Shown piece after piece: positions 33,001-39,000 of a stretch of 40,851 bases of DNA. The first letter of the stretch is position 1; the number at the start of each line of letters is the position of its first letter. The stretch comes from a virus (Duplodnaviria; Heunggongvirae; Uroviricota; Caudoviricetes), in IMG/VR virus record IMGVR_UViG_2721755728_000008; one strand, 5' to 3'. The position numbers were made by a program.

Positions 33001-36000
33001 TGAGAACGCCGCCCGTGCCTGCTGGCAAAGACGGCTGAATTATCAGAATTGTGTGGTCTGGAATTTTGCGCCATCGGTTTTCTCCGGTGGCACAGTGTTA
33101 CTCAACAGGGGTTCAGCCCTGTGCTGAATTGTAGATGAATTTACTCATCTTCAAAAGCAGAAAAACCAGCCTTAAGCCCAGCTTCTTTCAGAGACTGCAA
33201 TGATGTGACAAATTCATTTTCACGCAAAATAAAACCATCTGTCACAAGTTCATCCACAAAATAAATTAACGCAGCTCCACTCTTCCTTTGTTTAGATTGT
33301 AAACATTTAATACGGCAGTGACTGACAATAGCACCATTCTCAACGCGCACAGTATAGAGGCCATCTTCAGTAAAAATTTCACGTAATTCTTCGATTTTCA
33401 TCAACAGAATCCTTCCAGATAAATAGCACTCCCCTGTTCGGGGTCCATCCCTCTTATCCCTGCGCGCTACTTAAGTATTTTTGATTCTATTCCGGCACCG
33501 CCCAGAACTTCAAACGCGTTGAAAATAAAAACAAAAACCCGCCGAAGCGGGTTAAATGCGGGTGCGTTGAGAATGCCTGACACATCAGAGGTGGCGAGGG
33601 ATTTCTCCCCCGCCGGGTCTCTTACTCCTCAGATTCGTAAGCTGTGAAGACAGCGACCTCCGTCTGGCCGGTTCGGATTCGTACCTCGCAGAGGTCTTTC
33701 CTCGTTACCAGTGCCGTCACTATGACGGTTAAACAGATGACGATCAGGGCGATTAACATCGCCTTTTGCTGCTTCATAGCCTGCTTCTCCTTGCCTTTCG
33801 GCACGTAAGAGGCTAACCTACGTGTGTAGAGCATAGATATGGCCTCAGATTAATGTTAAGCGTCTTGCCGGACGCGTAATGTTAACTGGGGCTTTTCTCT
33901 ATCTGCCTTTGGTGTTGATGCCCGAGGCAGATAGCCTCAAGCACCCGCAGCAATTCTACTTAACTACCGTTACCTCGCCAATATGAAATCAATCAGAAAG
34001 GTGATCCATAAGAACAACAGCAAGACAATAAATTGCCATTACAGCAGCAATAGCCAGCGCACATTTGAGAACCAGCACCACAACCTCCTGTATTGGACGT
34101 ACACCAGTCCTGATAAATATGAGGCTGTCTCGTCAGTGATTCAATACAACTACTGGGTATAGTTTCTATGATTTTGTTCTGTGGAAATGGAAAACAGCAA
34201 CCAGTCACCACCAGCACTTCTTTAAACATGCCAAGTCACACGCAAGCCAACATTATAGTTCCCTTTGAGCGAGCAGATGAAGCTAGCAAAAATATTGATC
34301 ACTTAGGATGCATTACTAACGTTGCTATGTGTTAACGAACAGGGAGTGGGTCATCAGCATAAATATTTATGCAGTAGGTTTCTTTTAGGACTAGATTAAT
34401 CAAAAACATTTAGATAAAATTATAAAATCAAGAAATTGGTGGCAATTAATCTTTAATTGTGCCAGCTGAATTTCGTTATTATAGAAGATTAGCTTTTTTT
34501 TGAGTGTTTGGAGAGTAAAATGTTAGAACCACCAAAGAGTTATAATGAAATGTTGCCTATGCTCCATAAGGCGACTTTTATTACTACATTTATATTTTAC
34601 CTATCATTAGTCATTTATGGCTACATGCCATTGGTTGGCATTAATGCCAAGTATATCCCCCCCGTTAAAGACTACGAGGAATTTATTAAATGGATATTAA
34701 CCTTTGGCATATTACCAATTGCATCTTCAGTTTTTTGGTCAGTAATTAGTGGAGCTTTAGATCTACATAATAATGTAGCAAAAATTATTGGAATAAGGAA
34801 GATGTGGGATAGTCATTTAATTATTAAACCATTAGCAAAAATTGCAGGCGTTACGAGAAAATTAACTACTGATGAATCTCACAAGGTAATGAGTAAACTG
34901 TATTACCCAGAAGTTAAAGAGTTAAAAGACAAACATTACGTTGAACTTTTCTGGAACAAAGTTTATTACTTTTGGGTTTTCTTTGAACATACAGTAATCG
35001 CATTTGTTACTATTTTAATAATAAGTATCGCCAAATTAACAAATATATTCTCTGTTACTGGCTCTTTAATTAATCTTTGGTTGTGGATTATTTCTCTTGT
35101 CGCATTTGACTTCCTTATTTTCATAGCATCAGTTAAACCAAGAACAGAAAGCCAAGTAAGACAAATACCTGATAGCAAAATAAAAGAATTCTTTAACAAT
35201 AACAATATTTTTTAAACGAGGTTGATTTTGAATTACAAAATAAATGGAATAAACATACGTTCAGAAAATGCAGCGAAACCGCACACTATGCCATCTAACT
35301 ATCTCTGTAAACAGATTGAAAGCACTAATAAAAATGGCAATGCCCTTGATTTTGGATGTGGAAAACTTAGATATTCAGAACAATTAGTAAATAAATTTGA
35401 AACTGTGACATTTTTAGATTCCAGAAGACAACTAGAAAGAGTGCAAATTATCAGAGGTGTACAAACCACGATTCCAGATTACGTGATAAATAACTATAAG
35501 AATGCTAATATTGTTTCTTATGAAAATATAGATAAAATAACAAATCATTATGATTTCATACTTTGCGCAAACGTGCTTTCCGCAATTCCATGTGAATCCA
35601 CAATTCACAAAGTCCTCAGTGCGATTAGAGAATTATTAAAGAGTGATGGTGAAGCACTGATTGTCAATCAATACAAAAGTTCTTATTTCAAGAGGTACGA
35701 GAGCGGTATTAAACATTTGCATGGGTATATATACCAAAACTCTCGCAATGCTTTCTACTATGGTTTATTAGATGTGGATACTGTAAGTAAAATATGCTCA
35801 GATAATAATTTAGAAATAATAAAATCATGGAGCAAAGCAGGTAGTTCATATGTGGTTGTTGGTAAACATATACATATTTAGTTTATTTCAACAAATTATT
35901 AGAAAGAGTGATTTGCTTGTTAATTATTAGCTCGGCAGTGCCGGATCAACATGACCCTGCCACTTAGGCCATTGCCGGTTTACCTACTTTTGTAAGGTTC

Positions 36001-39000
36001 AGCATGAAGTTTTTATATACTCTTCCTAATATCAATAGTGATGCTCGCTTATGTTAGCTGCTTCTTGTACATAGTAGCCTTCTCCGACAGTACTGCAATG
36101 AGCGGAGAGTAAAAGTCGATAAACAATAAGGAGGTTCACAATAAATATTTCTCGGTGAAACTTTCAAAGCATTCTCTGTTTTGCTAAATCGACAATTATA
36201 AATCAACAACATTTAGTGTTATATCAATATTATTTAGCCTTGCAATCTCTGATGAATCACTTGCTATTTTAGCTTTTAATTTATCAATATTAATCATATC
36301 TTCATGGCTTATATAAACCATATCACCTTGGTTAACTTTAGATTTGTTCACTATGGCTTGAATAACAGACAAATCATCCATTACACCTCTCATAAATTTC
36401 ACCATGCTTTGATCTTTGAAGTCAGATATCGATTTTGAACGTTGCTTACGTTGAATTGTTCCTTTTGTAATTACTTCATTAATTTCTTTTAAACCAGTGA
36501 GCATATCAGACAGACTGCCTTCGCAACTCATCCGATGTTTTATTGCATTGCGATTAATAATATTGAGTATAATTTCGAGTGAATCTTTATCACTCCATGG
36601 ATGTAATGATGTATAATCATGATGGCGTCGAATGGCGTCAATCATATCCTGGACCATATCTTCATCTGCTTTATCGCAAAGTTCATTCACGAAATAGCTG
36701 GGGTCGATTATTTTACAATAACTTGGAGTTAGGTATCTTGAGGCTTTACAAAAACCAAAAATATATAAAGTAGAGTATTTATCTTTCAGACTCTCTCCTA
36801 TTTCATTTATTTTCTCAAAAGATTCGATAGTTTTTTTAATTTTTGCTGGACTTGCATTCGTAGTAACTTGAACTGCTATCATGTTTTTATTATCAGCTAA
36901 ATCAATGGCGGGAAAATTAACTTTAATCTGATTCATGTTTACCAGTTCACCCATTTTCAGCGCGCGAAACATAAAGATGGTCAATGACTCAATTATTCTT
37001 TCCATGTCATGAAAGCCTGCCTGTTTGCGTTGCGCGATATAAAGCTGGAGTAGTGCAATATCACTCTGTAAGTTTCTAATAAGTGGATCAATCATAGCTA
37101 ATAATCCTTTTCAATGAAGCTGGAGGTGTGTTTAACTATTAGTTAAATTTCTATTTTTATAGAAACAAGCTTTACAACTTCATCAAAGTTTCTCAAATCC
37201 TAATCCACTTTGCAAATCCACTAACCATGCTGAATGCTTTCTGTTGTTAAACATATCCGCTGCTGGCACCAAGCAGACAAACACACTAACTCTACCCTAC
37301 TCCACAAAAGAGCCAATCAATATCTGAACTAATAAACTTTAATCTCATCACTTCAATAAATATCGAGCATTTCCCTGATAGAATGCTAGTATGCGCTGCA
37401 TAACTTCACTCTTCCGGCACTCGCGACAGATTATGTTCTGACGCCTGTCGTAGCGACGTATTTCTCCGTCAGGTAATGACCAGATAAGGTCCGGATCAAC
37501 CGCAGATGGTTCCTTCAGCTTTGCCCTTGAGAGCTTTTTACGGGCATTTTGCCAGTCCTTACGCGCCTGTTCAGACGGGAATAACCCGTAACCAGAGTTG
37601 TATACATCGCCGCTGGCAACCAGCTCTCTTGCGAGAACGCTCATCAGATATCTTGTCGCACCTGTCTTGACTTCCAGTTGCCGTAACGTCTCACGCCCAC
37701 TCCGGCGTACGAGTTCAACAACCTGCCCTTTAATTTTTTCCCGCTCTTCTTGTGTAAAAACTTTTGCCACAAGCCCTCCTGAAAATTACCTCATGACCAG
37801 AAATTAACACTTACCCCCTGAAGCCCGGCGGAATTTCGGTATCCGGCTCAGAAATATGATTCACACAACGCTGTACAGACGAACGCCCCAGGCGGATAAC
37901 CAGTTCATCCCATTTTTCGCGAAGCTTTGACGGACTCATGATATTTTTTACCCAGAATGGATCCCGCTGCACCCGACCAAACATTTCACAAATTTGTCTG
38001 TGAGTTCTGCCATCCAGCATCCGCATTGTGCGCACGTCGTTGGCCCATGCGGTCCAGTTGGGTTCTTTCGGTCGCGAAATCTCGCCATCATCGCTGGCGG
38101 CCTGCTCGTAAAGACTCACGATTCGCCCCCAGATCCACTGCGCACACGCCAAATCTTCCTGGCTGCCCCACTGGCGTTTTTTCGCACTGAACACAACCGC
38201 GTCAGGGTGTCGGGTTAAAAAATCCTGTTCAACCGTCTGCGGGTCCGGTTGCGAAGCTTCCGGACGAGAAGTCTTTTTATTCTCTGTAGTAATCTCTGTT
38301 GTATTCTCTGTAAGATCATCAGGCCATTTTGACCCGATGACATTGAGTCGTTTTGAACCAATGGAGCGTTTCATTTTGACCTCTTCCATCGTGTCATTTT
38401 GACCTGATGGAGCGGCGCATTTTAAACCGATGGATTCGCTCAATTTGCCACCATCTAAAAGCTCGCTCCCGTAGTTGATCGTGTAGAAATTGGTCATATC
38501 GCGCTTTGATTTATTGAGCTTTTCACAACGCAAAAGCCCCAGCGTTTTCAGACTTGCAAACGCGCGCTTTAACGTTGACTCTGACCAGAATGGGAACTGT
38601 TCCAGCCATTGTTCCGTTGTGTTATAAATCCAGCGAACACCATCACATTCCATGCCGGAGTTGGTATCTCTCAACCAGTAGTGCAGTTGTTGCAAAACAA
38701 TGGCTTCGTTTAAGCCAATTTTCATTGCCAGCTGCGTGTTTATAACCAGTGGGCGTTCAGCAAAAAGAAGACTCATAATTCCATCCAGCTTTTTGTTGGT
38801 ATTGCTGTCGATACGCAAGCTTGAAAGCAATTGCTTTTTCTATAAGTTCGTCAGTTTCACGATCTACAACGGCAGGATCTGCAAAAAGCAGTCCGGATTC
38901 CACCACATCGCCATATTCTTTATTTAACCCGGCGATCATGTACGTAATACTTTTTCCATCACTGATCTCACGATACAACCTGAAATCACTAATCCGGATA

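Follow-up and report, generated by a model that had tools for sequence, protein, structure and literature searches.

We describe an AT-rich cargo island in a 40,851-nucleotide stretch of caudoviral DNA (IMG/VR record IMGVR_UViG_2721755728_000008; hereafter the window, meaning the whole stretch analyzed), and propose, with a probability of about one half, that it combines two cargo modules that are independent of each other, both candidate anti-phage systems, lodged in a defense and toxin hotspot of a prophage. The whole window is a Qin/DicA-type lambdoid prophage of Escherichia coli, and the island carries three intact genes (Table 1). Two of these code for a membrane protein and a class I S-adenosylmethionine (SAM)-dependent methyltransferase that are related to YmfE and YmfD of E. 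coli K-12, and the third, convergent with them, codes for a stand-alone SMEK-domain protein. The original prediction, made from the sequence without database searches, had taken the three genes as one unit. Its three open reading frames (ORFs) agree with those that RefSeq annotates at an E. coli locus of identical sequence, but the unit itself does not hold: the pair recurs without the SMEK gene beyond close enterobacterial versions, and the SMEK gene recurs alone. Hence, the island is composed of two units, the pair and a separate SMEK gene.

The membrane protein and the methyltransferase of the window show 60% identity to YmfE (over residues 1-223) and 69% identity to YmfD, respectively, of the K-12 e14 element, and a Citrobacter homologue of the methyltransferase with 85% identity already carries the name ymfD. 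The island pair thus represents a divergent version of two y-genes of K-12 that have been known for long but are uncharacterized. One of the recovered E. coli loci (L027) is 100% identical to MG1655 ymfE-ymfD and lies beside lit and intE in e14. The e14 genes resemble the island pair in their two-gene architecture, their order, and their status as prophage cargo beside a defense gene (lit), but they reside in another type of prophage and another insertion slot. Thus, the earlier statement that the combination is unnamed stands in so far as none was found in PADLOC 2.0, Pfam, NCBIfam or the literature searched, and has to be amended in that the pair is homologous to ymfE-ymfD. Our literature search on these two genes recovered no functional study, the sole functional data being the growth of a ymfD knockout, taken up below, and the observation that ymfD is not solely responsible for the N6-methyladenosine of mRNA (PMC12096079). 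The K-12 ymfE-ymfD locus may be silenced by H-NS.

The association of the two genes, which the original prediction had singled out for checking, proved to be widely conserved. A YmfD-type methyltransferase gene lies adjacent to the membrane-protein gene, on the same strand, in all of the approximately 47 close loci. Among 43 remote metagenomic loci, recovered with a 9-sequence subset of the relatives of the membrane protein, 32 have an adjacent same-strand ORF matching a hidden Markov model (HMM) of YmfD homologues, with E-values of 1e-45 to 1e-96 for full-length matches and weaker scores where contig ends or frameshifts cut the ORFs. The paired ORFs in these remote loci usually overlap by a few bases, and their order is sometimes reversed with the adjacency kept. 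Approached from the other side, distant homologues of the methyltransferase in Microbulbifer and Marinobacter have a YmfE-like gene directly upstream, and the pairing as a whole holds to below 25% identity of the membrane protein. The remote loci in which no methyltransferase was matched are mostly contig ends. Genuine exceptions are L080, where a gene for an EEP-family nuclease/phosphatase lies upstream and replaces the methyltransferase gene, L086, where a transposase flanks a copy that has no methyltransferase, and L097, a truncated copy beside Cas1. One ORF (L083, 198-1535) appears to fuse the membrane protein and the methyltransferase, but it lacks the C-terminal motif of the former and was set aside as a probable frameshift artefact.

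The linkage to the SMEK gene has a much narrower range. We found the pair without SMEK in Enterobacter and Providencia prophages of the P2-like type (after ogr), in a metagenomic contig resembling an integrative and conjugative element, at the locus of a 34%-identical membrane homologue, in three Pseudomonas genomes and in an e14-type element; in all of these, a homologous methyltransferase follows the membrane gene immediately downstream. SMEK stands beside the pair only at membrane-protein identities of 83% or more, and even there three loci (L051, L053 and L054) lack it. In turn, 108 clusters spread over the Gamma-, Beta- and Alphaproteobacteria keep the full-length SMEK architecture; the solo genes are found with integrases, a SLATT_5 protein, Abi_alpha, SymE and an AAA_13 ATPase, and the pair is never among the neighbors. 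In two loci, independent insertion sequences (IS) interrupt the membrane gene of the pair while its methyltransferase gene stays whole (an IS3-family element in L055, 6707-8001, and an IS5-like element in L059, 5391-6519); an ISVsa5 insertion in the island of H14 and H15 probably has the same effect. Such insertions would be expected if the membrane protein were an effector that is costly to its host, and they speak against its being an essential antitoxin.

The membrane gene begins with an ATG at 34520 behind GGAGAG. In line with the four-helix membrane protein originally described, its product has four hydrophobic segments (approximately 20-41, 58-80, 148-172 and 181-208), and its AlphaFold model is all-helical (pLDDT 87, pTM 0.80). 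The lysine and arginine residues, of which 12 lie in residues 80-146, 5 in the C-terminal tail and none in the loop 173-182, display a positive-inside bias from which both termini and an approximately 65-residue helical domain (80-146) are predicted to be cytoplasmic; hydropathy and charge leave the protein almost no periplasmic surface. Residues invariant among the closer relatives fall in this cytoplasmic domain (H83, N84, K88, R93, W96, P104, E119, Y129 and H139) and in the third transmembrane helix, TM3 (W152, F155 and E156), and H83, R93 and the TM3 glutamate (E156) are retained even in remote relatives. The protein has no matches at all in Pfam, NCBIfam or PADLOC and no fold match in the PDB. 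Its family comprises 39 clusters at 90% identity, and a search of 1.84 billion representatives with the family profile yielded 219 relatives (E<=1e-3), mostly of 220-250 amino acids (aa), which have in common the motifs L-H-[DN]-x-[IL]-[SA], G-I-R-x-x-[FWY]-D and W-x-[WY]-[FY]-W-x-x-x-E.

The methyltransferase gene starts with a TTG at 35228, 6 nucleotides (nt) past a GAGG and 12 nt past the stop codon of the membrane gene; the 6-nt gap between the two genes that was first reported is obtained only with an alternative TTG at 35222. The assignment of the class I fold is borne out by Pfam matches above the cut-offs to Methyltransf_12 (35 bits against 30) and Methyltransf_23 (34.2 bits against 27). 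The predicted SAM-binding stretch ALDFGCGKL is present, and D-x-G-C-G-K-x-R-Y (from D43) is invariant over 38 family members, as are D66-S67 and C-x-x-V-L-S-x-I-P (from C115). With motifs I, II and IV intact, the sequence places the protein in the class I SAM-dependent family, within which a conserved N-terminal S-E-N-A-A-K-P segment is specific to the YmfD-like proteins. No DNA-methyltransferase signature or family match was found in the Pfam, NCBIfam and PDB searches. A PDB sequence search with the single protein gave no match, and one with the family profile recovered weak generic relatives (small-molecule, protein-lysine, lipid and tRNA enzymes) at E 1e-5 or weaker. Ratios of non-synonymous to synonymous substitution (dN/dS), calculated against copies 77-91% identical, are 0.09-0.11 for the membrane gene, 0.11-0.27 for the methyltransferase gene and 0.09-0.29 over the three genes; all three are under purifying selection.

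The protein coded by the third gene matches SMEK_N (PF21941/NF033859) strongly, at 79.9 bits in Pfam (2e-22, cut-off 27) and 105.1 bits in NCBIfam (1e-30, cut-off 30), in agreement with the SMEK-like N-terminus first noticed. This N-terminal domain (residues ~5-146) is an Mrr-like PD-(D/E)xK domain of the restriction-endonuclease fold, with E36, D65, Q76-x-T78 and K85 invariant in 32 homologues, and it is homologous to PDB chain 26bh_D (E 8.5e-12), the nuclease domain of an effector of a short prokaryotic Argonaute (short-pAgo) system. The SMEK/Mrr domain of such systems is treated as a nuclease effector (PMC10810196; 10.1101/2023.06.08.544223). The island protein shares the NFPAIDLAD...QxT...K signature with the SMEK/Mrr-APAZ short-pAgo effectors, e.g. 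that of Kordia jejudonensis, and the PADLOC short-pAgo effector model is matched at positions 9-143 of 463. It differs from these effectors in being solo and in having, instead of APAZ, a C-terminal region of ~150 residues that forms a four-helix domain (~165-290), an all-helical bundle; no Argonaute neighbor was seen in the window or in 11 homologous loci. A Foldseek search of the PDB with the model of the SMEK protein gave nothing below E 0.1. One copy of the gene is frameshifted (L039). In a Pseudomonas locus (L013:5958-7700), the SMEK gene is followed by a same-strand gene for a 219-aa protein with a weak match to HEPN_RiboL-PSP (E 0.004) and then by a gene for a SLATT_5 membrane protein, an arrangement that is possibly a lineage-specific multi-gene set.

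The gene neighborhoods of the pair, outside the island, contain components of immune systems. The neighbors include Lit in e14, two systems that immediately precede the pair, namely Hachiman HamA/HamB in Pseudomonas and Olokun OloA/OloB in Microbulbifer harenosus (L105:986-6669), a retron Ec67-family reverse transcriptase/endonuclease, ORC-CDC6-like, HD-CE and Dcm genes, Lamassu LmuA/LmuB, Cas1, HipA-like and YoeB/YefM genes, as well as integrases, transposases and P2/lambda phage genes. Judged from the genes present within a few kb of the pair, this set is a classic defense-island cargo signature. A further connection comes from two remote relatives in which a TIR domain is fused to the membrane module (L060, 2059-3968, and L092, 93-1268). 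The fused TIR domain resembles ThsB and the PADLOC candidate PDC-S66, and the fusion gene of L060 has a YmfD-like methyltransferase gene 3 nt upstream. In the Microbulbifer locus, a 224-aa ORF with an R-N-N-L-V-H motif lies upstream of OloA/OloB.

The slot that the island occupies points in the same direction. A search with the island plus its flanks uncovered many E. coli prophages in which the hokD and DUF977 flanks are kept and the cargo between them differs, the alternatives being an AbiH-family protein, a KwaB-like protein, the Doc toxin, an Sll1717-type P-loop ATPase, DUF4209, DUF5677, DUF4406 and QueH. In K-12 Qin the same slot reads hokD-relE-relB-ydfV-flxA-ydfW-ydfX-dicC, such that both composition and slot comparison uphold the earlier view of AT-rich cargo in a variable prophage position where Qin carries relBE. 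The persistence of the hokD and DUF977 flanks around swapped cargo, together with a bona fide hok/sok locus at one edge, therefore indicates that the island fills a variable defense/toxin hotspot. The comparison of hotspots spans the flanks at 33100-38900 of the window and locus L104.

Table 1. Coordinates of the cargo island, its genes and its borders in the window
Feature	Coordinates	Strand	Basis
YmfE-like inner-membrane protein, 231 aa	34520..35215	+	ORF, ribosome-binding site, homology, AlphaFold model, hydropathy
YmfD-like class I SAM-dependent methyltransferase, 217 aa	35228..35881	+	Pfam, homology, invariant SAM motifs
Stand-alone SMEK-domain protein, 299 aa	36196..37095	-	SMEK_N profile, alignment of 32 homologues
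Convergent intergenic region, 314 nt	35882..36195	.	Sequence, alignment of six diverged copies, Rfam scan
AT-rich cargo island, GC 0.30-0.37	34000..37400	.	Composition profile; fills hokD-to-DUF977 hotspot
hokD toxin gene + sok antisense RNA	33622..33946	-	RefSeq hokD in identical locus; Rfam sok 114 bits
DUF977 family gene	37348..37770	-	ORF; RefSeq annotation; flank kept in prophages with other cargo

In the composition profile, GC content falls to 0.30-0.34 over ~34.5-37 kb, against ~0.5 in both flanks, and stays low for about 3.4 kb. The island had been called the clearest compositional outlier; it is the longest low-GC stretch but not the sole one, because window 1-1000 is equally AT-rich (this stretch and 23501-24000 have GC of 0.33-0.37). 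An identical stretch occurs in strain C7, whose RefSeq-annotated ORF calls agree with ours. In the orientation of the window, which is opposite to transcription of the early operon, its genes follow in the order Q, RusA, DUF968, hokD, then the three cargo genes (labeled hypothetical, class I SAM methyltransferase and SMEK domain protein), DUF977, hypothetical, YdaT-family, dicC, dicA, and further on the integrase. The hokD/sok pair is a complete type I toxin-antitoxin locus that marks the left boundary of the hotspot outside the two modules, and the DUF977 gene is both its right boundary and the first gene of the replication/early block of the prophage. The island block is found in 153 of 5426 complete E. 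coli genomes, in 146 of them at 99% identity or more, with about 6 further genomes holding diverged copies, a few of these at ~83%, and did not occur in the deposited-phage collection. The Rfam scan found no family match within the island. On the minus strand, 33532-33946 takes in hokD/sok and, just past it, a sub-threshold match to an isrK-like small RNA (25.8 bits, E 0.014). Elsewhere, at approximately 29625-30476 of the window as derived from the L001 coordinates, three tRNA genes (Arg, Arg, Ile) and a TerB-family pseudogene interrupted by a stop codon lie downstream of the gene for the Q antiterminator, on its late-gene side.

The gap between the convergent genes measures 314 nt, as first estimated. 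The strong AAGGAGG remarked in it (36128-36134) turned out to be a chance match and not a ribosome-binding site: no start codon lies behind it, it is not enriched (2 found against 4.6 expected from shuffles), and diverged copies have AAAGAGG or AAAGAGA instead. A 23-codon hydrophobic ORF (36041-36112, plus strand) was similarly rejected as a gene, its stop codon being unconserved and the substitutions mostly non-synonymous. This ORF falls in a block (~36040-36160) that has changed less between the 83-91% variants than the sequence on either side of it. The region yielded no supported gene, no Rfam RNA, and no promoter or terminator signal above the shuffled expectation. In one locus (L047, 5370-5800), the gap harbors a tandem expansion of (GAGTTCT)n.

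The conservation of the pair, its motifs and the pattern of IS insertions therefore suggest that a protein embedded in the membrane senses infection or acts as effector, and that a cytosolic methyltransferase is its obligate partner. We posit that the first module, the closely spaced two-gene operon, would act as an anti-phage device of the abortive-infection type. In it, the YmfE-like protein, with its buried conserved TM3 glutamate, a conserved cytoplasmic patch of histidine and arginine, and its conserved surface turned to the cytoplasm, would be the constant membrane-embedded sensor or effector, and the YmfD-like methyltransferase would be its obligate cytosolic enzymatic partner. Methylation of the cytoplasmic domain of the membrane protein might hold or release the activity of the latter; alternatively, the methyltransferase, once recruited to the membrane, might methylate an infection-derived or cellular target. 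The most economical version would be that methylation gates a membrane-damaging or signaling activity during infection. The second module would consist of a single gene, whose SMEK Mrr-like nuclease effector would be controlled by an infection-sensing C-terminal helical domain.

Several other explanations have to be weighed against this proposal. The three genes might form one integrated system, for instance one in which methylation protects self from the SMEK nuclease in the style of restriction-modification. All three are indeed co-present in 151 of the 153 matching E. coli records, and copies 83-91% identical keep the same arrangement in different prophage backbones. The three SMEK-less loci at the same divergence and all distant lineages, the solo SMEK genes of three proteobacterial classes with no transmembrane or methyltransferase neighbor, the convergent rather than co-transcribed layout, and the methyltransferase lacking DNA-methyltransferase family matches together make such a system very improbable. 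A second possibility, applying to the pair by itself, is an addiction or toxin-antitoxin module that stabilizes the prophage, with a membrane toxin neutralized by methylation in a type VII-like manner. The compact layout of two genes, of which the second, for the enzyme, begins with a weak TTG, the presence of hok/sok, relBE and Doc in the same slot, the IS elements that hit the membrane gene and spare the methyltransferase, and the AT-richness of the locus, which makes silencing likely, would all accord with this. Yet the K-12 ymfD knockout shows no growth defect (PMC12096079), which argues against a simple relation of toxin to essential antitoxin; L086 keeps the membrane gene without the methyltransferase; and the TIR fusions and chromosomal defense-island positions point to immunity. 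Toxin-antitoxin action and abortive infection are also not mutually exclusive. We regard an addiction module as unlikely. The pair could also serve lysogenic conversion or detoxification, by TehA/TehB-like methylation of small molecules or lipids or by an envelope modification that alters phage adsorption. Like TehA/TehB, it is an operon that joins a membrane protein to a SAM methyltransferase of class I. The methyltransferase has a Pfam TehB match marginally above the gathering score (24.4 against 20.4 bits), if below those of the generic families, and weak matches to NCBIfam TehB, to PEMT and to annotations of the UbiG type. The NCBIfam TehB scores of 28-29 bits, however, fall well short of the 218 and 303 bits that the equivalog models require; the membrane partner, with four transmembrane segments and almost no surface in the periplasm, is much smaller than TehA and unrelated to it or to any Pfam family; and the mobile, immune context, with a ThsB-like TIR fusion and defense-system neighbors, is hard to fit with metabolism. 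A role of this kind therefore appears quite unlikely.

A different alternative concerns the C-terminal half of the SMEK protein, which might be a divergent HEPN RNase, making the protein an Abi-type ribonuclease comparable to HepS. The R-x4-H motif of the original prediction is conserved, with R182 invariant, H187 present in at least 90% of the 32 homologues and position 183 usually polar, giving a well-formed R-N-x-x-x-H (consensus R-N-A-[IV]-[KR]-H), and it lies in a helical bundle; HepS, moreover, is a precedent for defense by a single prophage-encoded HEPN gene (PMC13043305). Against it, Pfam detected no HEPN domain at E<=1 in either the whole protein or the isolated C-terminal half, a PDB profile search found none at E<=10, and no HEPN fold match was seen. 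The Abi models (AbiH, Abi_alpha, Abi2 and others) matched none of the three proteins in Pfam, PADLOC, PHROGs or NCBIfam, and the label 'Abi-like', for which the motif was the sole basis, had to be dropped. We rejected HepS as the identity of the protein: HepS is a stand-alone HEPN protein with no SMEK domain described, its homologue set being restricted to proteins of <=250 aa without additional domains (PMC13043305). Thus, the island protein resembles HepS and other stand-alone HEPN abortive-infection proteins in being coded by one prophage gene and in conserving a motif of the Rx4H type, and departs from them in its extra PD-(D/E)xK domain and in lacking a HEPN match. We consider the HEPN alternative doubtful, and with no support for it from profiles or folds the SMEK protein is therefore read as a single-gene nuclease module with a putative sensor or regulatory domain.

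The proposal of two independent anti-phage modules has its own weak points. We infer the anti-phage role of either module, the allotment of sensor and killer roles, the substrate of methylation, and the nuclease activity of the SMEK protein, and for both modules it is the company of other genes that speaks for defense. Neither protein of the pair is matched by a PADLOC 2.0 model, which fits novelty but also a non-defense role. The nearest families of the methyltransferase are generic small-molecule, protein and lipid enzymes (TehB, UbiG-like, PKMT and PEMT), and the K-12 ymfD knockout grows normally. In the SMEK protein, a threonine (T78) takes the position of the canonical (D/E)xK lysine, as it does in the Kordia Mrr domain. 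Finally, E. coli always has the three genes side by side, down to copies with ~83-91% protein identity, a constancy that leaves room for a functional link between the modules.

Among described systems, the pair has a parallel in Kiwa, which couples a small multi-pass membrane protein, KwaA, with four transmembrane segments, to a cytosolic partner, KwaB, and is found in defense islands and prophage hotspots, and in other defenses that join a sensor in the membrane to a partner in the cytosol. The likeness is one of logic alone. The pair has no sequence relation to Kiwa and no PADLOC KwaA/KwaB match (K-12 YmfE included), and its partner protein is a SAM methyltransferase; a KwaB-like gene does occupy the same slot in another E. 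coli strain. As for Thoeris-like systems, the window contains no TIR domain, the fusion being confined to the remote relatives L060 and L092. No profile library or literature that we searched assigns a function to the pair or to the SMEK module. To our knowledge, no described system uses non-DNA methylation as its defense logic.

It is conceivable that YmfE/YmfD-type pairs in general, including the silent K-12 e14 copy, are widespread, unnamed membrane-anchored immune modules in which cytosolic SAM-dependent methylation controls, or is controlled by, an effector or sensor with four transmembrane helices, the TIR-fused variants leading on to NAD-based immunity. We offer this wider generalization tentatively, as something possible rather than probable. 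Were the pair indeed immune, it would constitute a new two-gene family, whose founding members have been sitting unrecognized in K-12 e14 beside Lit. It would also link a methyltransferase of the small-molecule or protein type to a membrane effector, a combination absent from the current catalogues of defense systems. The solo SMEK protein, for its part, shows that a nuclease domain known from short-Argonaute systems also occurs in a gene that stands by itself, joined there to a putative regulatory domain that is new. Moreover, the hokD-DUF977 slot is now documented as a site that swaps relBE, Doc, AbiH, KwaB-like proteins and the present modules, which aids in mining prophages for more such systems.

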